Shown here piece by piece: positions 5,606 to 29,470 of a DNA stretch of 31,694 nucleotides (the stretch's first letter is position 1; each line of letters starts with the position of its first letter). Origin of the DNA: Candidatus Hodarchaeota archaeon (GTDB lineage Archaea > Asgardarchaeota > Heimdallarchaeia > Hodarchaeales > Hodarchaeaceae); the NCBI GenBank assembly GCA_016839785.1, contig JAEOTQ010000200.1, positions 1 through 31,694 on the forward strand. Reading direction: 5' to 3'. The translations under genes and the position numbers were made by a program. The notes beneath the pieces were generated by a model. It did not search any database. It was not told the DNA's origin and was given only the letters and a program-made list of their open reading frames with translations.

Positions 5606-6088
5606 TCATTTTACGATGCAATTGATACGGCTATTTTTAGGGTCTAATTCACAATGAAAGAGAATGTTGCTGTGAGGAAAGATTGAAATTTCGTTCTCTT
5701 TCCAGCTTACATTAATAATTTGACCAGTGAAACCATTATCCTTAATGATAGGTTCTCCTTGCATAACAACCATTGAATTATTATCTTTACTTACGAATAA
5801 GATGTTATTCTTTCTTTGTGGATCAGCTACTACATCTGAAATTGGATGTACTTCCTCCCTAATTTCAAAACCTTTTGAGATCCATTTTATTCTTGTTCTT
5901 ATTCCGAGATTCTGTATTTGCTTAAAAATTAGAATTTTTATCCCAGATATAATAAACCCAATTTTCTCTGTGCTGTCTTCAGTTCCCAATTCTTTATAAC
6001 CCGTGACTTGGAATCCGCGTGATTTTTCTTGATTGGATGGGTTTAATGAACACTGAATATTCTTGATAATAATCCTTTTTCCAGCCAC
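5606..6088 (-). CDS. Hypothetical protein, predicted beta-rich
   Basis: 160-aa ORF filling the gap, GGGG upstream of the GTG start, no recognised motif. Confidence 0.6.
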   Translation of the reverse strand: MAGKRIIIKNIQCSLNPSNQEKSRGFQVTGYKELGTEDSTEKIGFIISGIKILIFKQIQNLGIRTRIKWISKGFEIREEVHPISDVVADPQRKNNILFVSKDNNSMVVMQGEPIIKDNGFTGQIINVSWKENEISIFPHSNILFHCELDPKNSRINCIVK

Positions 6089-15769: not shown

Positions 15770-16696
15770 TTAGATTACGTTATTTAATACTGCTGCGACT
15801 GTATGTAATCGGTTTTCTGCCTCATCAAAAACTACAGAATGACTGCCATATATGATATCGTCAGTTACCTCTTCTTTATGGCGTGGAAGACAATGCATAA
15901 ATATATAATTCTTTGCAGCATGTTCAACCAACTCCTGATTGACTTGAAAACCTTCAAACTTTCTTAATTTCTCTTTTGTCTCTGCTTCTTGTCCCATAGA
16001 TATGAAAGTATCAGTTACAATAACTTCTGCATCTTCAACTGCTGCTATGGGATCATTCGTCACCACCACTTGCTCTGGAGATGAGGCATTAGTATTACAA
16101 TAATCGATAATGCTTATATCAGGCATATAATCTACAGGTGTCCCTATTTGCATCTTCATTCCCATTTTAATAGAAGCAATCATCAGGGTGTGGCACACAT
16201 TATTGCCATCACCAATCCAAGCGATTTTTACATTTTTCAATCTTCCTAAATGTTCCTCAATGGTAAGGATATCAGCTAAACCCTGGAGAGGATGGTACTG
16301 ATCAGATAGAGCATTAATAACAGGGACACCTGCATGTTTTGCAAGAGTTTCCACCGTACTATGTGCATATACACGTGCTAGAACAGCTGAAACCATTCGT
16401 CCCAAGACAATTGCAGTATCTGATAATGATTCATTTACTCCTAACTGAATGTCGTCTTTCCCCAGAAATAGGGCATGACCTCCAAGCTCAGCCATTGCTG
16501 TCTCAGTTGATACCCGCGTTCTTGTAGACCTTTTTTGGAATATCATACCAAGCGTTTTGCCTTTTAATGGTTGAGCTTGAATGTATTTGGATTTATTTTG
16601 CTTGAAAGCTTTTGATTCATCCAATAAAAATCGAATCTCCTCTGATTCTAGGTCTAAAAGTGTTAATAATGATCTACCTTTCATTTGAATTCCCAT
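15770..16696 (-). CDS. argF: Ornithine carbamoyltransferase with eukaryote-type signatures
   Basis: STRT, HPLQ, GDGNN, DTFISMG, HCLP, EAENR. Start likely ATG 16696 or 16684 rather than 16738. Confidence 0.95.
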   Translation of the reverse strand: MGIQMKGRSLLTLLDLESEEIRFLLDESKAFKQNKSKYIQAQPLKGKTLGMIFQKRSTRTRVSTETAMAELGGHALFLGKDDIQLGVNESLSDTAIVLGRMVSAVLARVYAHSTVETLAKHAGVPVINALSDQYHPLQGLADILTIEEHLGRLKNVKIAWIGDGNNVCHTLMIASIKMGMKMQIGTPVDYMPDISIIDYCNTNASSPEQVVVTNDPIAAVEDAEVIVTDTFISMGQEAETKEKLRKFEGFQVNQELVEHAAKNYIFMHCLPRHKEEVTDDIIYGSHSVVFDEAENRLHTVAAVLNNVI

Positions 16697-16727
16697 TATG
16701 CATAACCTTCCTAGTAGTTTAAGATTC

Positions 16728-17015
16728 TCATCCGCCATGAATTACGGGGATGAAAGTAAGTTTATCACCTTGCGCTAGGGGCGAGTCCATACCTTCTAAT
16801 ACAGAAATATCTTGATCATTAATGAAAACGATTACTGATCTAGTAGATTCATAAGAGTCCGTAAAAAAATGATTTAGACCCTTAAATTTTGGTATGTTTG
16901 AGAGTGTTTGAACAACGGATTTTACAGTAGTAGTTCCCTCTTTGAAATCATATGTGAGCTCCATTTGTCCCAAATCGTATTGCAATGAACCCAGAAAAAC
17001 TAAGAGAATTTCCAT
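16728..17015 (-). CDS. Ubiquitin-fold protein, MoaD/Urm1/SAMP family
   Basis: VIVFINDQD...L..GDKLTFIPVIHGG with C-terminal GG. Start ATG 17015. Confidence 0.88.
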   Translation of the reverse strand: MEILLVFLGSLQYDLGQMELTYDFKEGTTTVKSVVQTLSNIPKFKGLNHFFTDSYESTRSVIVFINDQDISVLEGMDSPLAQGDKLTFIPVIHGG

Positions 17016-17042
17016 TCTACTATCAGTCCGCTTGTACAAAAA

Positions 17043-17208: not shown

Positions 17209-17952
17209 TTATCGGAAGACGTCGTTTTCTGGTTCACGAATCAATTCTTGTGCAGAATTGTTATTGATAGAATAGTCGACCCCTCTCACAATAATTACAG
17301 GTGTTCCCTCATCAGCTTGCCCCATAGCAATTCCTGCGGCCGCAGCTACTTCATCAACTCTTGCTATAATTGTAGATCTCAGTTCATACCCAAAAAGATC
17401 TGTCTTCCCACGAATATCTTCAAGAGGACTGATTCCAGCCAATCCAATTGCAAAATTAACAGTACCGACCCTTAAAGGGCGGCCAAATGTATCAGAAATG
17501 ATTACTGCAACATTTTTTTGTAGTTTGTCTTGAATAGTATCCTTTATCTGTCGGGCAGAATAATCAGGATCGTTAGGAAGGGAAATAATAGTATTTCCAG
17601 GAGTATTAGATTTATCTATCCCGCTATTTGCGCAGATGAATCCATGGTGGGTAGCAGTGATTAGTACTTTGTCATTCATCCGAATAATTTCACTACTTTC
17701 TTGGAGGATGACTTCGATTTTTCGTGGATCCTTTCCTTGCATGTTTCCAATCTGAAGAGCAAACGGACTAGGAGTAATCGAATCTAGATCATATACTTTA
17801 TTCTCCGCTTTTGAGACAATTGTATGCGCAATTACAATGATATCCCTATTTTTAAGATCTACTTTACGTAGCTCTTCTGCAATTATATTTGCTAATTGAT
17901 CACCAGGATTAATGATTGGAAAATCCCTCAAAGGGAATATTGTAATCTTCAC
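17209..17952 (-). CDS. cofE: Coenzyme F420-0:L-glutamate ligase
   Basis: PIINPGDQL, IVSKAE, ANSGIDKSN, DTFGRPLRVG, DEVAAAA, GQADEGTPVIIVRG, DVFR. Confidence 0.93.
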   Translation of the reverse strand: MKITIFPLRDFPIINPGDQLANIIAEELRKVDLKNRDIIVIAHTIVSKAENKVYDLDSITPSPFALQIGNMQGKDPRKIEVILQESSEIIRMNDKVLITATHHGFICANSGIDKSNTPGNTIISLPNDPDYSARQIKDTIQDKLQKNVAVIISDTFGRPLRVGTVNFAIGLAGISPLEDIRGKTDLFGYELRSTIIARVDEVAAAAGIAMGQADEGTPVIIVRGVDYSINNNSAQELIREPENDVFR

Positions 17953-17980: not shown

Positions 17981-18049
17981 ACAGCCTCAGACCGCTCATC
18001 GCTCTTCATCTTGGAAATCTGTACCTATTAACTAATCATCACAGGCTAT
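17981..18049 (-). ncRNA. Box C/D methylation guide sRNA (SSU rRNA C1402 equivalent; U43/snR70 site)
   Basis: Minus strand: stem ATAGCC/GGCTGT, C GTGATGA (18042-18036), guide, D' CAGA (18021-18018), C' ATGAAGA (18009-18003), 12-nt guide GCGATGAGCGGT, D CTGA (17990-17987). Confidence 0.85.
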
Positions 18050-18064
18050 TATGTACAATTCTTT

Positions 18065-18814
18065 TCAGATGCCAAACTCAGATGGACGAATTTTCACTTG
18101 CTCGGTTAGATCTTCTAGAAGTAATTTTACTTTTTCTGTTTGAGTTGTACTCCCCACTTTAACGTATTTTTCATGGGCCTTTACTAAAAGATCAATAGCT
18201 TCTTTCATGTTTTCTCGTGCGCTAATGAGTGACTTTGCACGAGTGTACAAAGCAAGAGCTTCATATCTAGTTACATCTTCTCTACCTATCTTGAACTCTT
18301 CAACGGCTCTTTCTAAGAAATATGCTTTATCGAAATCTGACTCCATAGCTGCAGCGCGTTGTATAAAAGAACGGGCACGAGCTTTTGCCGCCTCCATTTC
18401 AAGACCAGTTGTCGAATAAAGTGCTCCTGCAGATTCGTATAAGCGAGCAGATTCAATGAATTCCCCGTTTTGTGCCTTAGATTTTGCCAACTCACCTTGA
18501 GTTTGAGCTTGAACGGTTCTTGCATGTTTTGCTTCATCTAAAAATCCCTCTGTGGAGAAGATTACATTCGCTTTTCCGAAAGAACGAATTGCTTCCAAAA
18601 AATTAAGCTCAATCATGTCAATGTAACCATGCGAACAGAGTCTGAACGCTTCGGCCCTTTTACTCAACTTTTTCTCATTGCCATCACTAAAAGACTTTGC
18701 AGATTTCTTAAAATTATCAATGGCTTCTTTATATCGTTGAGTTTCATAATAAGCCATGCCTTGATCAAACTTTTCTTGACCTTTCTTAATTTTATTTCCC
18801 TTGAATAATACCAT
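18065..18814 (-). CDS. All-helical TPR-like repeat protein (SNAP-like repeats)
   Basis: Repeats YKEAIDNFKKSAKSF, FLEAIRSFGKANVIF, FIESARLYESAGALY, MKEAIDLLVKAHEKY. Start ATG 18814 or GTG 18847. Confidence 0.75.
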   Translation of the reverse strand: MVLFKGNKIKKGQEKFDQGMAYYETQRYKEAIDNFKKSAKSFSDGNEKKLSKRAEAFRLCSHGYIDMIELNFLEAIRSFGKANVIFSTEGFLDEAKHARTVQAQTQGELAKSKAQNGEFIESARLYESAGALYSTTGLEMEAAKARARSFIQRAAAMESDFDKAYFLERAVEEFKIGREDVTRYEALALYTRAKSLISARENMKEAIDLLVKAHEKYVKVGSTTQTEKVKLLLEDLTEQVKIRPSEFGI

Positions 18815-19357
18815 TAAGAATTTCTCCACAAATACAGTAAAGCCCACATTTAATGTGAATAATTAAATAACCATTATTTCTTATGATTGATTTTCTTTAA
18901 TAACCCAATCCTAAAATAATAATCATTAGTTTTTCTAATAAAGGTTCGCAAAGGGTTAGGGATGATTTTGGTGGTATTCTTCTCATTCAATCAACCTTCT
19001 TCAAATGATTGCACACTAGACTAAATTGTTTAAAAGATCTCTTGACGGCAAAATACATCCTCTATTTCCTTTCAAATAGACAAAATAATGAAAAACACCT
19101 TTCAAATGTAAGAGTTAAGATAATTTTATTCATAAGTTATTCTGAGGTAAGAATTCAGCTGTAAAACTGTTAAACCACCATGATTAGGAGTGATTTGAAA
19201 TACTAACTCCTTAAAAGAATAAGGCAACATTAATTAATACAGGATTATATAAAACGACTATACGGAGTGTTTCTCCACTGATGGCATAAATCTGAATACC
19301 GCACTCACTCCGACAATTATCTCAGTTTTAATCAACTCTCTGTTTGGTGAATGGAAA

Positions 19358-22300
19358 TTGTCAATACAAAATAAACGTTTATCACCGTTTTATTCTCCTT
19401 TATTAATAGTTCCCCTTTTAATCATGTCTTCCCTTCTAATACCCTTCGTTGGGTTTAATATTCCTCAGGAGAACCAATCAGCTGGACAATATATTACTTC
19501 ATTACGTGACTCCTACCTTGACACAATTCCACCTCCCCAATCAGGGATATACCGTAATAAAGATGCACAAAACTCACCTTATTACTCAATTGCGAAAATT
19601 GACCCAGAAAAAGCCATATATTTTCCAGAAGAAACAATAAGTGTTACTAATCGCTTCAATAGCGCCCAAACAGGAAGTTGGGCTATTGTTTCTCAAGTAA
19701 TAAGCATTTATTTACATAAACATGATTATACAAATCTAACAGATGTAAATCATCTTATTGCCACAGCTGTAACGAATGGTACTCCGGTTATTCCTTCTAT
19801 TTCAAACGACCTCACAGAGGGAATAATCGATGTATCATTTACAATTCCAGAAATGACGAACTTAACTAATCGATATGGTATTTCACCAGGGGATAATGTT
19901 TCATTATATCAATACTATCCTGGAGGTAGTACAAATACAACAGCTAAAATTGAAAATGTCGATCCGTTTGCCAAAATTGATTACTTTGTTGTCAGTGGAT
20001 TTTCAACTCTAGCTGAGGAAATTCCTGGATTCATAAATACTGCAAGTAGTGATAATACTTTTCGTCAGGGAGAGGAGGCAACAGTAATCCTCAAGGCACA
20101 ATCAGGAACCACACCATTATCAGGACTTACAGTAGATATTGAACTTCATGATGGTACAACACATGCCCTTATACCATATGGAAATCAAGGGATTACCTAT
20201 AATCTACTTGATATGACCACAAGCATACCTAGCACCACAACAGATGCAAATGGTGAGCTACGTCTGAATGTTACAACTACATATCCTACAACTCTTGAAA
20301 ATGACTATTATTTCATTCTTAATACAACAATTGATACAGCAGATGGATTCACTGAGAATTTTGATGGGAGTAATAATGCAACAAATTATGCGGAGAGTAC
20401 AACTAATTTCACCATTTCTAATGAAATGGATGTTGTTACGGTCGAATTTGTATCTGCTGTACCTTCCCCTCCAATCGCACCACCAAATGAAAACTCCACT
20501 CTTGTTACATTTAGAGTAAACTTAGATTATGCTTATACCACTGATATTTACCAGGTTTCAGGAATTCCTGTCAATGCAACATTGAATTCTTATCCGACAG
20601 GGGTAAACTTACAATTTGCTACGGGATTCATTGATAACGGTACGGGATGGGCAATGACAAATACAACTGGACATATCCAATTTGTCATCACTGCAGGATT
20701 TCCAATCCCCTACCAATTAAAAACTCCTACCATTACCGCGATTGCTGATCTACGGAATAATAATGCACCAGCGGGTTCTTATCCCAGCAGTTACCCTAAT
20801 AATCCTCATCGATTTATGAGAAGCAGTACAGGAATGGTCACTGTTTCTTCTGCAGGTAACATAATCAGCATCGATCCTGACTTCTGGATTGGAGATATTA
20901 GCTTAAATTCGATCACCGCTACCAGTATTCGGCCAGGAGAGTCGGCCACCCTTGTATTTGAAGTAAATACAACCTCTGCACCATTGGTTGATTTTGTAAA
21001 TGTACCTGTTAAAATTGAATTAAATGAAATAATAGTAGGGGTATCTTTGTCATTTAACGCATTACGCAATCCTCTCTATGCAAATGGTTATCGATATACC
21101 GATTCCACAGGGATGATAGAAGTTACAGTAAACTCAATCTATCTGACAACTTATGAAGTTCTGAAGAATATTATTTTAGATTTAACCGTAGACTTTGAGA
21201 ATGATTCCCAAGCCCGATGGATTGGCCATGACAGATCTGGTGATGCCACATTTGCTGAATTCGACAACTCATGGACTTCAGCTCAGGATACAAGTTTAAC
21301 GATAGACCCAGATTTTACAACCTATGAAATTATCCTTGCCACAACCAATGAATCTGGAGATACTGTAATCCGATCTGGAGATATTCTTGATGTGACTTTC
21401 AGGGTTCAATCAGAAGTTGGGAGTTTTCCACTTGCAGGAGTAGATGTAAATGTCGTTTTAGTAGGAAGTTACCTTGGTGTAACCCTTGCGTACGTAGGAG
21501 GATCAACAAGTGATGGGTCTGGTGACGTAACTGTTCGTGTAACCACAACATATCTAACAACTCCTAAGAACATTAATATAATACTTAACGCTACAGCTGA
21601 TTTAACCACTGATGTTGGGGTAGATAGTGAATGGGATATAGGACAAAAATCAACGAATGCAAATTTCTTTTCAAATAGCTCTTATTCAGATGTGGAAGAA
21701 ACGATACAGGTAAATCCACAATATTTCTTTGGCGAAATCAGGGCATACCCAGCAGATAATCCAATCTCGAGAATTGGTCAAACAGAATGGATCAATATTG
21801 AATTTACTCTCTATTTAAGCGGTGTTGGTACCGTATATCCTGATATAAATGACATAAATGTTTCTATTACAGTAGACGGTAATCTTCCTGGGGATGCCAA
21901 CATGAATGTTATTCCTATGGCGAGTTTTCAAGATTCGAGTAGTAGTAAGGCAATTTTTTCACTTCAACCAACAGGATCCACTCCTGAAAAATGGTACACT
22001 GTCAATGCTACTGCACACTTTGGCGATGCTCAAGGATTAACTTATAATATCACTCATTCCACAGTTCCTTCTGGATCCTTGTCAGGTGTGTGGGTGAATG
22101 GCTCTCATACTGATCTTATTTCCTTTACTACCTTCAATTTTGAGGTTAAGAACATAGATCGAATCCAAGTCCTAATTCAAGATCCTGTCAACGATATTTC
22201 GGATGTTACTCATTCTGATGTCGGTTTGAATGTCTCCACAAGCTATTATGAAATATATCGGGGAACAACTTACATCAATATTTCTGGCAGTTATTATGAT

Positions 22301-24436
22301 CCAGTTGCAGGTCTAGGTATTCCTTCTACTACCGTTAGAATTTCTTTTAATACAACAATTGCACCTCAAACCTTTACCCTAGCAAATGTTGTTACAGATA
22401 GTGACGGTGAATTTTGGGCCAATGTTAGTATACCAACGTCAATTCCCTTGCAGGATATACAAATATACGGTTGGGATCCCACTTCTCCTACCCCTCAAGA
22501 AAATCGCAACCCGATCACAAATATTAGGCTGATTTCTAGAGTCTTTATTCCTAATTACTCACTCAGTGGATTCAATGGTAACGCAATTTTTGTTGGAGAA
22601 AGCGTAACTTCATCTGGAATCATTCGAGACGATCAGGGAGTTATTGTTGATTCTAATCAGTTTACTGGATTAATAAGAATAATAGGGTGGGACACTACAC
22701 AAGAAGTGGGAACCGCAACGGTTGGCAGTCTATCCTCAGGTAGTTTTTCTCTAGCTTATCAGATTCCCATTCAAACTTATCCTACGAATTCTATTGCTAT
22801 TCGTGCTAAAGTCATCTGGGGTCCGGGGTTACTTCACTATCGGCCCAGGATTGTTCAATTGCCAGTCAATGTATATGATGATATATCGATAAATTCGTTT
22901 GAAATCTACCTCATTGCAAACGATTCTATCCTACCTATAACGGATGGTAATACGTATAATATCCTTGGTGACCATCATCGTGACATATTGATCTTTGGCT
23001 ATTTAGAAGATCAAATTGGTCGTGGTTTAAGTGGAAAAGAACTAAATGATGATTGGAATGGCTCGACTAGGATGATTGTCAGTGGTGTAGGCGGTTATTT
23101 CAGTAGTGGTCAACCATTCACAGGATTTGATAATGTCACGTGGATTTGGAGTCTTAATCATGTTTTGGATAACGGAACAACCCTCTCAAAAACATTCACA
23201 GTAACGTTTAACTGGGTTGCCCTAGATGGAACGTTACCTGATATTTCGATCGTGGTTCCCACAGATATTGAGACAATTGCTTTACCCAATACTCCTACGA
23301 CTACGATAGTGGCTGATATATTTGATCCAGACATGAGTACTGGTCCAGGGTACGTTTCACTTGGGCTAAACGCAAGTTCAATTACAATTACAATTGGTGG
23401 AGTGAGTGCTCCAATGGTCAACATTGGGGGTTCATTATATTCCTTTGATTGGGATACATCAAGTGTGGGTGATACTATCTTCTTTATTTCGATTACGGCA
23501 TTAGATTATGCTAATAATCTAGGAAATGTCTCATTTTATGCAGTAATTGATGTAGTGCTCCCTATGGTAACCATCAATGTTCCATTCACAACCGTGCAGA
23601 CTACGGACTATGCAACTATGAATGCAAATGGGGATATCTTAATCTCAGGAAATCTAATTGATACAAGTTCAAACACAAATCGCAATAGTGGAATAAATGC
23701 CTCCAGTGCACAATTGATAATTCGTCCCCAAGGAGGCGCAACTGTCTCTACTTTAGATTTCAACGATATAAGTGCTACTTCGAATTCCTTCAACTATAAT
23801 TGGAATATTTTTGATTCCACCACTTTAACTAGAATTGCACTGTTCGATACACCTAATACTAACTGGGAGCTAGTTCTTACTATAACAGATAATGCTGGCA
23901 ATTTCAAACAGACAATACTAACGGTTGTGCTAGAAAATAACAACCCTGTTGCATCTACGGTATCAGAACCACCTTCACAAATCACTGGAGGTACGTTGGA
24001 ATTTATAGTAACATTCTATGATCTTCTAAGCGGAATAAATGAAAATTTCTCAAGATTTGTACTCTACGATGCGGATGATGATTCCCTTTTACAAATTTAC
24101 AATTTTAGTTCCTCTGAAGTGACATTGATTGACGATTCCAATGTTAGTCTCACTTTGAACGCCGAGGATTTGAATGATGGGCATTATCTTTTTCGATTAA
24201 CTGTTTTTGATAATGTAGGAAACAGTGGAATAGTGGAATCGAATGATTTCAACATTCTCCTTCCAGCAACCACAACCACTACTCCTCCACTAACGACGAC
24301 GACACCCCCTGGTGGCCCTGGTGTATTACGGCCAATTGACCTTATACAGTTTCTCTTACTCGATATTATCGCCTTAGGCAGTGGAATAGGAATTGCCGTT
24401 ATCTTTGAAAAGGTAAAAGCTAGACGAAGAGGTTAG
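19358..24436 (+). CDS. Large membrane-anchored surface glycoprotein with tandem Ig-like domains
   Basis: N-terminal hydrophobic signal/anchor, T/S/N-rich beta-strand sequence, recurring TD.xG motifs, many NxS/T sequons, TTTTPP linker, C-terminal TM and KARRRG tail. Confidence 0.88.
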   Translation: MSIQNKRLSPFYSPLLIVPLLIMSSLLIPFVGFNIPQENQSAGQYITSLRDSYLDTIPPPQSGIYRNKDAQNSPYYSIAKIDPEKAIYFPEETISVTNRFNSAQTGSWAIVSQVISIYLHKHDYTNLTDVNHLIATAVTNGTPVIPSISNDLTEGIIDVSFTIPEMTNLTNRYGISPGDNVSLYQYYPGGSTNTTAKIENVDPFAKIDYFVVSGFSTLAEEIPGFINTASSDNTFRQGEEATVILKAQSGTTPLSGLTVDIELHDGTTHALIPYGNQGITYNLLDMTTSIPSTTTDANGELRLNVTTTYPTTLENDYYFILNTTIDTADGFTENFDGSNNATNYAESTTNFTISNEMDVVTVEFVSAVPSPPIAPPNENSTLVTFRVNLDYAYTTDIYQVSGIPVNATLNSYPTGVNLQFATGFIDNGTGWAMTNTTGHIQFVITAGFPIPYQLKTPTITAIADLRNNNAPAGSYPSSYPNNPHRFMRSSTGMVTVSSAGNIISIDPDFWIGDISLNSITATSIRPGESATLVFEVNTTSAPLVDFVNVPVKIELNEIIVGVSLSFNALRNPLYANGYRYTDSTGMIEVTVNSIYLTTYEVLKNIILDLTVDFENDSQARWIGHDRSGDATFAEFDNSWTSAQDTSLTIDPDFTTYEIILATTNESGDTVIRSGDILDVTFRVQSEVGSFPLAGVDVNVVLVGSYLGVTLAYVGGSTSDGSGDVTVRVTTTYLTTPKNINIILNATADLTTDVGVDSEWDIGQKSTNANFFSNSSYSDVEETIQVNPQYFFGEIRAYPADNPISRIGQTEWINIEFTLYLSGVGTVYPDINDINVSITVDGNLPGDANMNVIPMASFQDSSSSKAIFSLQPTGSTPEKWYTVNATAHFGDAQGLTYNITHSTVPSGSLSGVWVNGSHTDLISFTTFNFEVKNIDRIQVLIQDPVNDISDVTHSDVGLNVSTSYYEIYRGTTYINISGSYYDPVAGLGIPSTTVRISFNTTIAPQTFTLANVVTDSDGEFWANVSIPTSIPLQDIQIYGWDPTSPTPQENRNPITNIRLISRVFIPNYSLSGFNGNAIFVGESVTSSGIIRDDQGVIVDSNQFTGLIRIIGWDTTQEVGTATVGSLSSGSFSLAYQIPIQTYPTNSIAIRAKVIWGPGLLHYRPRIVQLPVNVYDDISINSFEIYLIANDSILPITDGNTYNILGDHHRDILIFGYLEDQIGRGLSGKELNDDWNGSTRMIVSGVGGYFSSGQPFTGFDNVTWIWSLNHVLDNGTTLSKTFTVTFNWVALDGTLPDISIVVPTDIETIALPNTPTTTIVADIFDPDMSTGPGYVSLGLNASSITITIGGVSAPMVNIGGSLYSFDWDTSSVGDTIFFISITALDYANNLGNVSFYAVIDVVLPMVTINVPFTTVQTTDYATMNANGDILISGNLIDTSSNTNRNSGINASSAQLIIRPQGGATVSTLDFNDISATSNSFNYNWNIFDSTTLTRIALFDTPNTNWELVLTITDNAGNFKQTILTVVLENNNPVASTVSEPPSQITGGTLEFIVTFYDLLSGINENFSRFVLYDADDDSLLQIYNFSSSEVTLIDDSNVSLTLNAEDLNDGHYLFRLTVFDNVGNSGIVESNDFNILLPATTTTTPPLTTTTPPGGPGVLRPIDLIQFLLLDIIALGSGIGIAVIFEKVKARRRG

Positions 24437-24588: not shown

Positions 24589-25089
24589 GTGATAAGAATG
24601 AAAGGATTAAATTTCTTTGCTCAGATTGGCCCAGAACTCTATATATTTGCTTTTGTTGTGCTAATAGTAGCTAGTGCTTTGGTTTATTATTTTCGTCAAC
24701 GAATTATAGACGCTTTAGGAATCACTGCAGCCAAAAAAACAATTTTAGAACAAGAAATTGAACAACGACTTGTTCAAATTAGGCAGTTAGCACGACAACA
24801 GATGTTTAAAGACGCAGCTGTATTAATGTGGCAGACTATGACTCTGGCTTCCGAGGGCTTCCTTGGAGTTGGTCGTGCACCAAATGAATCTGCAAGACAA
24901 TTAGGTGTCAAGCTAATGAATAGAGGCGATCTCGATCCTAGTGCAATAAATGCAATTATTATAGCATTTGAAAAAGCAAGATATGGACAGACCCCCTTAA
25001 CTAATCAAGAATTTAAGGATGGCTTATCAGGTCTGCATCAATTCCTACAAATGGCTACTTCACTTGGAGAAATTCCCCTAGCAGAATAA
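24589..25089 (+). CDS. DUF4129-like membrane protein
   Basis: N-terminal TM; R.PNES.RQ and FEKARYG motifs; position upstream of DUF4350-MoxR-DUF58. Confidence 0.75.
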   Translation: MIRMKGLNFFAQIGPELYIFAFVVLIVASALVYYFRQRIIDALGITAAKKTILEQEIEQRLVQIRQLARQQMFKDAAVLMWQTMTLASEGFLGVGRAPNESARQLGVKLMNRGDLDPSAINAIIIAFEKARYGQTPLTNQEFKDGLSGLHQFLQMATSLGEIPLAE

Positions 25090-28000: not shown

Positions 28001-29470
28001 ATGCTTTCGTCTCGTGGTGCTTTTATCGCTATTGGAGGAATCGTACTTCTTTCGATTGGACTGAGTGCAAAGGGAATTGGAACAGTTACGACTATGGTTC
28101 CCATTCTTTTTAGTGGTGAGGGATTAATTCAACAATCAGGCAATCAAACTGCAAGTGGTTTACCTGAAGGAATGGAATTTCTCGAAGCTTTTGAGATATT
28201 GAACAGCTCTCCGATTGTTGATTACAGTATGTTTTTAGGAACATTATTGATTTTAGCTAGCGTCATTGGATTACCACTTTTTAGAAGATCTGCAAACGCT
28301 TCATTAATCCGAGTTACACGTATGGTAGATCGAGAAAAAGCTTTTGCGGGGGAGTACGTTCATGTAACAGTTCGAGTAGAAAACACTGGCAAAAAAAGAA
28401 TGGATTTTCTAGAAGTCTATGACGCAATTCCCGACATGTTTGAGATAGTTTTAGGTGAGAACTTCATTATAACTCAATTAGCTGGTCGTGAAGCAAAAGA
28501 GTTTTCTTATATAATTCAGGTCAGTACGAGGGGAGTGTACCAGATAGGGCCTGTAAAAGTAATCATTCATGATCGATTAGGCTTTTATTTTGAAGAAGAT
28601 GTAAGACATTTTTATACTGAAGTGTTATGCTATCCATCTTACGAAGATATTCGTAGAATGGAGGCCTTGAGCAAGCGAAGGCAACAGGGTAAAATGTTTG
28701 GTGCCCATAAAACAAGGCAAAAAGGCATGGGAGATGATTTCCATTCTCTTGCACGTTATTATCCTGGAGCTCCATTCAAATCCTTGGATTGGAAAGCTTT
28801 TAGCCGTACAGGAGAGTTAATGGTACGGGAGTTTGAGGCTGAGAAGAACATTCGAATTGTACTATTTCTCGACCACAGTGGCAGTATGGGAGCTGGTATT
28901 CCGTATAATACGAAATTAGATTTTGCAATCCGGTCAGTGATGCTAGTTATGAAGATGGCTGAAGAACGTCAAGATCTTTTTGGACTGGTTACATATGCGG
29001 ATAGACCCACATCTTTTTTACCTCCTGGGGGTAGTAAATCGATGTTCCATCAACTTCTTGAAATTCTCGCATTGGTGGAACCAGAAGGTCGCTCTGATCC
29101 TCTTGCCGCAGTCGACTATGTCATGCAAAGATTACCAAGAGCATCATTTTACGTTTTCATTACGGATTTAGAATCTTCGGATTCAGAGATTTTTACTGAG
29201 GCCGCTAAACGAGCACGTTCCACTAAAAATAAAATAACAGTAATTTCACCTTTTGGCCCATTATTTGAAGCAAAACTAACTGACTTATCAACAACTGAAA
29301 GAGCTATCGCTGAAGCAATCTTTGAAGAATATTTAGGATATCGTAAACAGGTAGAAGATAGCTTGAGAGGTCTGGGAGTAGAAATCATCAACGTTGGTCC
29401 TGATGATATTCTCCCTAATGTAATCAAGACATATATGAAAGGAAAACAAGCTGGAAAAGGTTCGGTGTAA
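28001..29470 (+). CDS. DUF58 family protein with vWA/MIDAS domain
   Basis: Two N-terminal TMs, RGVYQIGP...DRLGF, DFHSLARYYPG..F..LDWKA..RTGELMVREFE, MIDAS DHSGS. Confidence 0.9.
   Translation: MLSSRGAFIAIGGIVLLSIGLSAKGIGTVTTMVPILFSGEGLIQQSGNQTASGLPEGMEFLEAFEILNSSPIVDYSMFLGTLLILASVIGLPLFRRSANASLIRVTRMVDREKAFAGEYVHVTVRVENTGKKRMDFLEVYDAIPDMFEIVLGENFIITQLAGREAKEFSYIIQVSTRGVYQIGPVKVIIHDRLGFYFEEDVRHFYTEVLCYPSYEDIRRMEALSKRRQQGKMFGAHKTRQKGMGDDFHSLARYYPGAPFKSLDWKAFSRTGELMVREFEAEKNIRIVLFLDHSGSMGAGIPYNTKLDFAIRSVMLVMKMAEERQDLFGLVTYADRPTSFLPPGGSKSMFHQLLEILALVEPEGRSDPLAAVDYVMQRLPRASFYVFITDLESSDSEIFTEAAKRARSTKNKITVISPFGPLFEAKLTDLSTTERAIAEAIFEEYLGYRKQVEDSLRGLGVEIINVGPDDILPNVIKTYMKGKQAGKGSV

Follow-up and report, generated by a model that had tools for sequence, protein, structure and literature searches.

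The minus strand of the window (the whole 31,694-nt stretch of DNA that was analysed) carries at 18049..17981 a textbook archaeal box C/D sRNA, an unannotated ncRNA gene. Its D guide most likely directs 2′-O-methylation of C1402 in 16S rRNA, a job that guide RNAs are known to perform in other systems. This cytidine touches the codon in the P site, and its ribose is methylated by a protein in bacteria and via snR70/SNORD43 in eukaryotes. The modest novelty here is the combination of a mismatch at N+6, immediately beside the predicted target, with a guide that lies before the D box and not before the D′ box. Conservation among relatives shows that selection, not drift, maintains this mismatch.

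The window is contig C180 of a 4.04-Mb Hodarchaeales (Asgard) MAG of 248 contigs that is 84.5% complete; the Hodarchaeales lineage is reported as closest to eukaryotes. Sequencing runs with this DNA carry the label of marine sediment or of sediment metagenomes, and the G+C content of the window is 34-39%. A TPR-repeat protein gene, the sRNA and a cofE-like gene follow one another on one strand:

18065..18847, minus strand: TPR-repeat protein gene, the upstream neighbour; its stop codon is 15 nt before the sRNA
17981..18049, minus strand: whole box C/D sRNA, 69 nt including a 6-bp terminal stem; homologs in 21 of 22 genus genomes
18044..18049, minus strand: 5′ half of the terminal stem, AUAGCC; pairs with 17986-17981 through five Watson-Crick pairs and one G·U
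18036..18042, minus strand: C box, GUGAUGA; one unpaired U stands between the 5′ stem and this box
18022..18035, minus strand: D′ guide, UUAGUUAAUAGGUA, 14 nt, probably an orphan; five variants among seven close relatives
18018..18021, minus strand: D′ box, CAGA; the same in 22 of 28 homologs
18010..18017, minus strand: 8-nt spacer from D′ box to C′ box
18003..18009, minus strand: C′ box, AUGAAGA, a variant of AUGAUGA
17991..18002, minus strand: D guide, GCGAUGAGCGGU, 12 nt; N+5 is G17995, opposite C1402, and N+6 is A17996, opposite C1403
17987..17990, minus strand: D box, CUGA; invariant in all homologs
17981..17986, minus strand: 3′ half of the terminal stem, GGCUGU
17209..17952, minus strand: F420-0:gamma-glutamyl ligase gene (cofE-like), the downstream neighbour; starts 29 nt after the sRNA

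Elsewhere in the window, we noticed a 103-aa Urm1/ThiS-family (ubiquitin-related modifier) gene (16728-17039, minus strand) that adjoins both cofE and an aspartate/ornithine carbamoyltransferase gene (15770-16738), and a very long ORF of 1692 aa just past the TPR gene (19358-24436, plus strand).

The first-pass annotation had called a box C/D sRNA at 17981..18049, and the full set of C, D′, C′ and D boxes together with the 6-bp end stem, all on the minus strand, bears this out. Both the C box and the D box were found in all 28 parsed homologs. The C box reads ATGATGA in 20 of these and GTGATGA in the other 8, and that of the window conforms to RUGAUGA. A terminal stem of 3-6 bp, the kink-turn platform that joins the C and D boxes, is present in 28/28, with its fourth pair exchanged from A-U to U-A. 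The C′ box is ATGATGA in 16 homologs and ATGAAGA in 8; the window's D′ box CAGA and C′ box AUGAAGA are each one letter off consensus, at positions that are conserved in the homologs. Against the ~12 nt usual between boxes in archaeal C/D sRNAs, the D guide is 12 nt long in every homolog (28/28), and the D′ spacing is 12 nt in 11, 14 nt in 11, as in the window, and of other lengths in 6.

An Rfam search with the sRNA returned nothing at gathering score. Among the 13 sub-threshold matches near it, 11 belong to C/D-box families, including snoR77Y (22.8 bits), sR12 (21.3), Z30 (21.1) and sR2 (18.9). In a strict scan of the MAG for the whole architecture, this sRNA was the only match. Further candidate box C/D sRNAs in the same MAG lie on C69 (minus strand, 28949-29002), C116 (minus strand, 5732-5782) and C148 (plus strand, 24806-24867); the D guide of the C69 candidate forms 11 contiguous Watson-Crick pairs with the genus 23S at about position 2010 of the G017 fragment.

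Searches with RF01959 and RF02540 found no rRNA genes in this MAG, and likewise none in three single-contig genomes of the genus. With neither a 16S nor a 23S gene in the MAG, pairing was therefore judged on the rRNA of relatives, a sample in which the genus 23S is without ~2078-2497. The sole full-length 23S in the genus bins, on G001:C57 (L073), was rejected as a genus 23S since it has just 74-84% identity to the genus 23S and is probably from a contaminant contig; we used it as a generic archaeal 23S. Several other features of the relatives' rRNA are worth recording. The 16S of G008 (L006, G008:C9:1695-3919) is 2225 nt long, ~750 nt longer than its relatives', which points to a large insertion, probably an intron. 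Pieces of ~110-190 nt that resemble the 23S 3′ end (~2685-2830 of a reference 23S) recur on single contigs, with three copies on G002:C65 (L120) and more in G008:C8, G014:C70 and G001:C52 and C45 (L119, L121-L125); partial duplication, for instance where mobile elements have inserted, may account for them. At E. coli position 1408, which is A in rrsH, all nine Heimdallarchaeia 16S sequences examined have G, within GUCGCAG or GUCGUUG; eukaryotes share this G.

We checked the E. coli numbering on rrsH of NC_000913 (A1398 C C G C1402 C C G1405 U C A1408 C). Against 16S 1398-1409 of four same-genus genomes, 11 of the 12 D-guide positions pair: five base pairs from N+1 to N+5, with a Watson-Crick G-C at N+5, then A·C at N+6 (C1403), then six base pairs including G·U at N+8 (G1405). 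Alignment of the relatives' 16S to rrsH supports the earlier assignment of N+5 to C1402. The guide had also been described as pairing with 1398-1411, which stands for 1398-1409 (12 positions pairable) and fails for 1410-1411, which is AG in the genus 16S. The 16S of nine out of nine relatives (four of the same genus, five of the same class from other families) reads ACCGCCCGUCG / ACACCGCCCGTCG, with CCC at 1402-1404, and the four same-genus genomes that have the 16S segment carry the identical guide. The A opposite C1403 is thus a real mismatch.

The 11 pairs exceed the minimum of nine that we set for an archaeal C/D guide. With one mismatch, one G·U and a Watson-Crick pair at N+5, the duplex falls within the prediction rule given in PMC4644070 and PMC6009581, which allows at most one mismatch and at most two G·U pairs and requires a Watson-Crick pair at N+5. 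Its energy at 1398-1409 is -19.4 kcal/mol, the lowest across all rRNA available from relatives, compared with -24.6 kcal/mol for a perfect complement and -17.0 kcal/mol at the next site, which needs a bulge. Complementarity alone is weak: of 5000 guides made by shuffling, 9.5% do as well without gaps (score 19) on 6.5 kb of rRNA. In the MAG, 72 sites genome-wide score at least 19. The exact complement of the guide, ACCGCUCAUCGC, is found in the 4.04-Mb MAG on the antisense strand of the sRNA itself and nowhere else. Complementarity is not significant by itself, and what decides the target is comparison with other guides.

The sRNA is conserved throughout the genus. Similarity search found it in 21 of 22 genomes, the window's MAG included; the exception, G005, is 74% complete and is also without the TPR neighbour. 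The gene order TPR gene, sRNA, cofE is the same in all 21 carrying genomes. When we fetched loci through the TPR protein alone, a retrieval that is independent of the sRNA sequence, all 21 contained an exact 15-mer made up of the 11-nt D-guide core and CUGA. This 11-nt core is invariant in the 21 genus genomes and in nine metagenome contigs. Over the same distances, cofE protein identity falls to 67-73% in distant members of the genus, and at four-fold sites its identity to the window's cofE is 30-42% in distant members and 49-63% in the four closest; these sites are near saturation. Homologs vary freely in their D′ guide, spacer and flanking sequence. An invariant 15-mer amid diverged cofE four-fold sites, D′ guide, spacer and flanks indicates that the D guide is under purifying selection, the A at N+6 included.

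The exact C′-guide-D motif occurs in 21 records of a species-genome collection. The 17 archaeal ones are this same sRNA. The four bacterial ones have no C box, and chance alone would give about that many. Among 400 Asgard genomes, the motif is present in 18, all of this genus. When the pattern was relaxed to hold just N+1 to N+5 constant, 19 of the 83 genomes in the class matched; the additional one is G019, which belongs to a sister family within the order. In G020, a third genus of Hodarchaeales, the TPR ortholog is present with no sRNA after it and no match to the pattern.

The G019 locus encodes a C/D sRNA with a 7-bp end stem ~270 nt after the TPR ortholog, with cofE adjoining. Its D guide, GUGACAGGCGGU|CUGA, fits 1398-1409 in the same register and differs from the window's at N+6, N+7, N+8, N+11 and N+12; it has G-C at N+6 and C-G at N+8, and its one mismatch falls at N+7 instead. 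With these same five positions left free, a scan of metagenomes returned 27 loci. Nine are of the window's type, two are free of mismatches (CAGAUGGGCGGU and CUGAUGGGCGGU), four have U at N+6 (GUGACGUGCGGU) together with a D′ guide complementary to the 16S 3′ end, one has A at N+7 (UUGACAGGCGGU) and can likewise pair over a stretch with the 16S 3′ end, and two are uncertain. The remaining nine are G+C-rich and without a C box, and their free positions misfit the 16S; they serve as a built-in negative control.

Near-identical guides have also been published. That of Sac-sR122, GCGAUGGGCGGC, shares 10 of its 12 letters with the window's guide, and the same source (supplementary file 1, PMC4644070) lists Iho sR11 (CCGAUGGGCGGA) and Mka sR114 (GUGAUGGGCGGA). 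According to PMC5389701, Iho sR11 could direct Cm1402, and in N. equitans Cm1402 was measured with no guide found. Taken together, the G019, metagenome and published guides for the same segment and register corroborate C1402 as the target.

The MAG encodes the enzymes that such a guide would use, with genes for fibrillarin (PF01269, 272 bits) and Nop5 (PF01798, 221 bits) adjacent to each other. The absence of rsmI that the first-pass annotation had envisaged was also found: TIGR00096, which we take to be the RsmI family, matched 0 of 22 genus genomes, the window's MAG included, and exceeded the cut-off in 10 of 14 control genomes. We infer that the sRNA probably joins L7Ae, Nop5 and fibrillarin in an RNP. 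The D guide would pair with 16S 1398-1409, the strand entering helix 44 at the decoding site, and the C1402 ribose, at N+5, would be placed in the fibrillarin active site to yield Cm1402.

The mismatch is not confined to one lineage. A·C at N+7 is seen in G019 and in the metagenome lineages L154 and L166, and U·C at N+6 in L163; the remaining N+5-register guides that we examined have G·U at N+8. A rule that every natural guide has some non-Watson-Crick position over C1403-G1405 was tried and dropped, contradicted by a fully paired guide one register off in G084. This guide (L182, G084:C2:63315-63331 region), from another Heimdallarchaeia family, belongs to a C/D sRNA and is fully Watson-Crick to 16S 1399-1408. 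Its spacing of 13 nt puts N+5 on G1401, not C1402. The scan that turned it up gave seven matches, the other six without a D box, and the control gave three.

We tentatively entertain the idea, without favoring it, that a single mismatch beside C1402 is a selected design feature of decoding-site guides that arose in archaeal lineages independently. A mismatch directly next to the nucleotide to be modified weighs against the Cm1402 reading: mismatches near the site reportedly lower methylation, both in vitro and in vivo, an observation ascribed to Cavaille and Bachellerie in 1998 and to Appel and Maxwell in 2007. The weak spot may allow a very G+C-rich duplex to release the helix-44 strand in a mesophile, or it may prevent a second methylation at C1403. 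Least likely, by analogy, it would expose a cytidine for a base-modifying enzyme; SNORD13/snR45 expose a cytidine for ac4C. The A at N+6 may also be kept for 16S 1117-1128 as a second target, where it pairs with U.

The strongest alternative to Cm1402 guidance is that the sRNA binds 1398-1409 chiefly to chaperone the folding of the decoding site or to time its assembly, and that the mismatch beside the target leads to poor or no methylation. Purifying selection holds the A at N+6 even though G would pair better, and guides of other lineages also have one defect within C1402-G1405 (G019, L154, L166, L163), both of which would suit such a role. In Pyrobaculum sR25 the conserved mismatch falls on N+5 (sR25:C1368), and according to its authors the interaction, not the modification, may be what matters (PMC6009581). 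In the sRNA described here, however, N+5 is a Watson-Crick G-C pair, methylation-competent by the published rules. Guides free of mismatches exist (Sac-sR122, Iho sR11, Mka sR114, L155, L173), as does the fully Watson-Crick guide of G084, albeit shifted by one register. We consider a mainly chaperone-like role unlikely, and less so than any other alternative.

Less probable still is that the true target is another RNA, be it 16S 1117-1128 (N+5 at 1121), a stretch of the genus 23S outside the sample or an RNA from outside the ribosome. By duplex energy, no better target emerged in the relatives' rRNA, and 16S 1117-1128 (ACCGCUAAUUGC), a helix strand in a variable region, ties with 1398-1409 on gapless score, both at 19. 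In G002 and G008 all but one of its 12 positions pair, with the guide's A at N+6 opposite U, and its two genus-variable positions (A/G) each face a guide U, so that pairing is kept. Its duplex is nevertheless weaker, at -15.1 to -15.7 versus -19.4 kcal/mol; with the G017 guide it contains two mismatches and three G·U pairs; and its sequence differs in other families of the class. Nor can it account for the guides of G019 and the metagenomes, which fit 1398-1409 alone. The gap in the sampled genus 23S leaves room for a target there. Against a target elsewhere, perfect or wobble-only D-guide complements in five relatives occurred at control-level counts with no recurrent locus, and none of the 16 tRNAs parsed with aragorn offered a match. 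An 11/11 wobble match in G008 was discarded as a target as it is antisense to 23S. The earlier suggestion that the organism's own 16S has U at 1403 (ACCGCUCGUC), making the guide fully complementary, draws on the guide sequence alone, for a MAG whose own 16S is unassembled, and is hardly credible given that 9/9 relatives' 16S read ACACCGCCCGTCG with CCC at 1402-1404, four of them from same-genus genomes with this very guide.

We return to the preferred reading, Cm1402 guidance by the D guide, with a second guide in the same RNA to account for. For the window's 14-nt D′ guide, we found no credible target in the relatives' 16S, their partial 23S and operon flanks, or the 16 parsed tRNAs of the MAG. 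A resemblance of its target to the SSU ~240 region had been proposed. The best match there consists of 5-6 Watson-Crick and 5-7 G·U pairs, the D′ guide drifts among close relatives, and we do not retain the proposal. The best match overall lies inside the insertion of the G008 16S, is absent from the 16S of the other genomes and was set aside. In the window's subclade the D′ guide is thus probably an orphan, as judged by complementarity. The commoner D′ guide of the genus, CAGCUUAGGGAA, with 12-nt spacing, is conserved (seen in L018, L020-L024 and L027-L029). It could form 9 bp with 16S 1381-1389 (N+5 at C1384), 18 nt upstream of C1402, or alternatively 10 bp with 23S at about position 208. 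If it pairs at 16S 1381-1389, its carriers would be double guides for the 3′ minor domain.

Among known systems, the closest in sequence are Sac-sR122 (Sulfolobus acidocaldarius), Iho sR11 (Ignicoccus hospitalis) and Mka sR114 (Methanopyrus kandleri), which share the 12-nt guide form NCGAUGGGCGGN, the 16S segment 1399-1409, N+5 at C1402 and G·U at N+8 with the window's sRNA (Dennis et al. 2015, PMC4644070). For Sac-sR122 and Mka sR114, the predicted target C1402 is our own reading of their sequences. Their guides precede the D′ box, whereas the window's precedes the D box; they have G at N+6 and no mismatch, whereas the window's has A; and they come from hyperthermophiles, in contrast to a marine-sediment Asgard MAG. 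Pyrobaculum sR25 is likewise aimed at this 16S segment, and several species share its mismatch, sR25:C1368 being one of four conserved N+5 mismatches in Pyrobaculum by the account of Lui et al. 2018 (PMC6009581). The PCAsR25 sequence has A where the G for C1402 would be (supplementary file 1, PMC4644070), which suggests that Pyrobaculum C1368 corresponds to C1402. In sR25 the mismatch at N+5 is predicted to make methylation impossible, whereas in the window's sRNA the mismatch is at N+6 and N+5 is Watson-Crick. Bacterial RsmI has the same predicted product, Cm1402, but is a stand-alone protein 2′-O-methyltransferase; a C1402 guide would explain how the genus can make Cm1402 without RsmI. For guide strength, a selected mismatch next to the target poses a small puzzle about tuning at the decoding site, and the gain is otherwise one of ordinary annotation.

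A further comparison is with archaeal sR12 (Rfam RF01147), which shares clan CL00059 with SNORD43/snR70. It was our second-best sub-threshold Rfam match, at 21.3 bits against a gathering score of 38, and the C box, first guide and D′ box of RF01147 align to the C′ box, D guide and D box of the window's sRNA, such that the guide of sR12 lies in the other half of the RNA. Neither SNORD43 nor snR70 gave an Rfam match to the sRNA at E up to 10. The eukaryotic counterparts named earlier agree with PMC2794176, in which Cm1402 (E. coli) is equated with Cm1639 of yeast, guided by snR70, and with human Cm1703. PMC3511168 cites the prediction of Gaspin et al. that sR12 methylates the site equivalent to that of yeast snR70, places SNORD43/snR70 in LECA with possible orthology to sR12, and leaves common descent versus convergence open. 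The sR12/SNORD43-snR70 group and the window's guide would thus both select the C1402 equivalent, the window's by alignment to E. coli rrsH and sR12 by that prediction. Among the snoRNA families of PMC3511168, snR70/SNORD43 is the single one placed in LECA for which an archaeal counterpart is proposed; the Hodarchaeales guide for C1402, conserved as it is, therefore adds a data point for following this family across the archaeal-eukaryotic divide.
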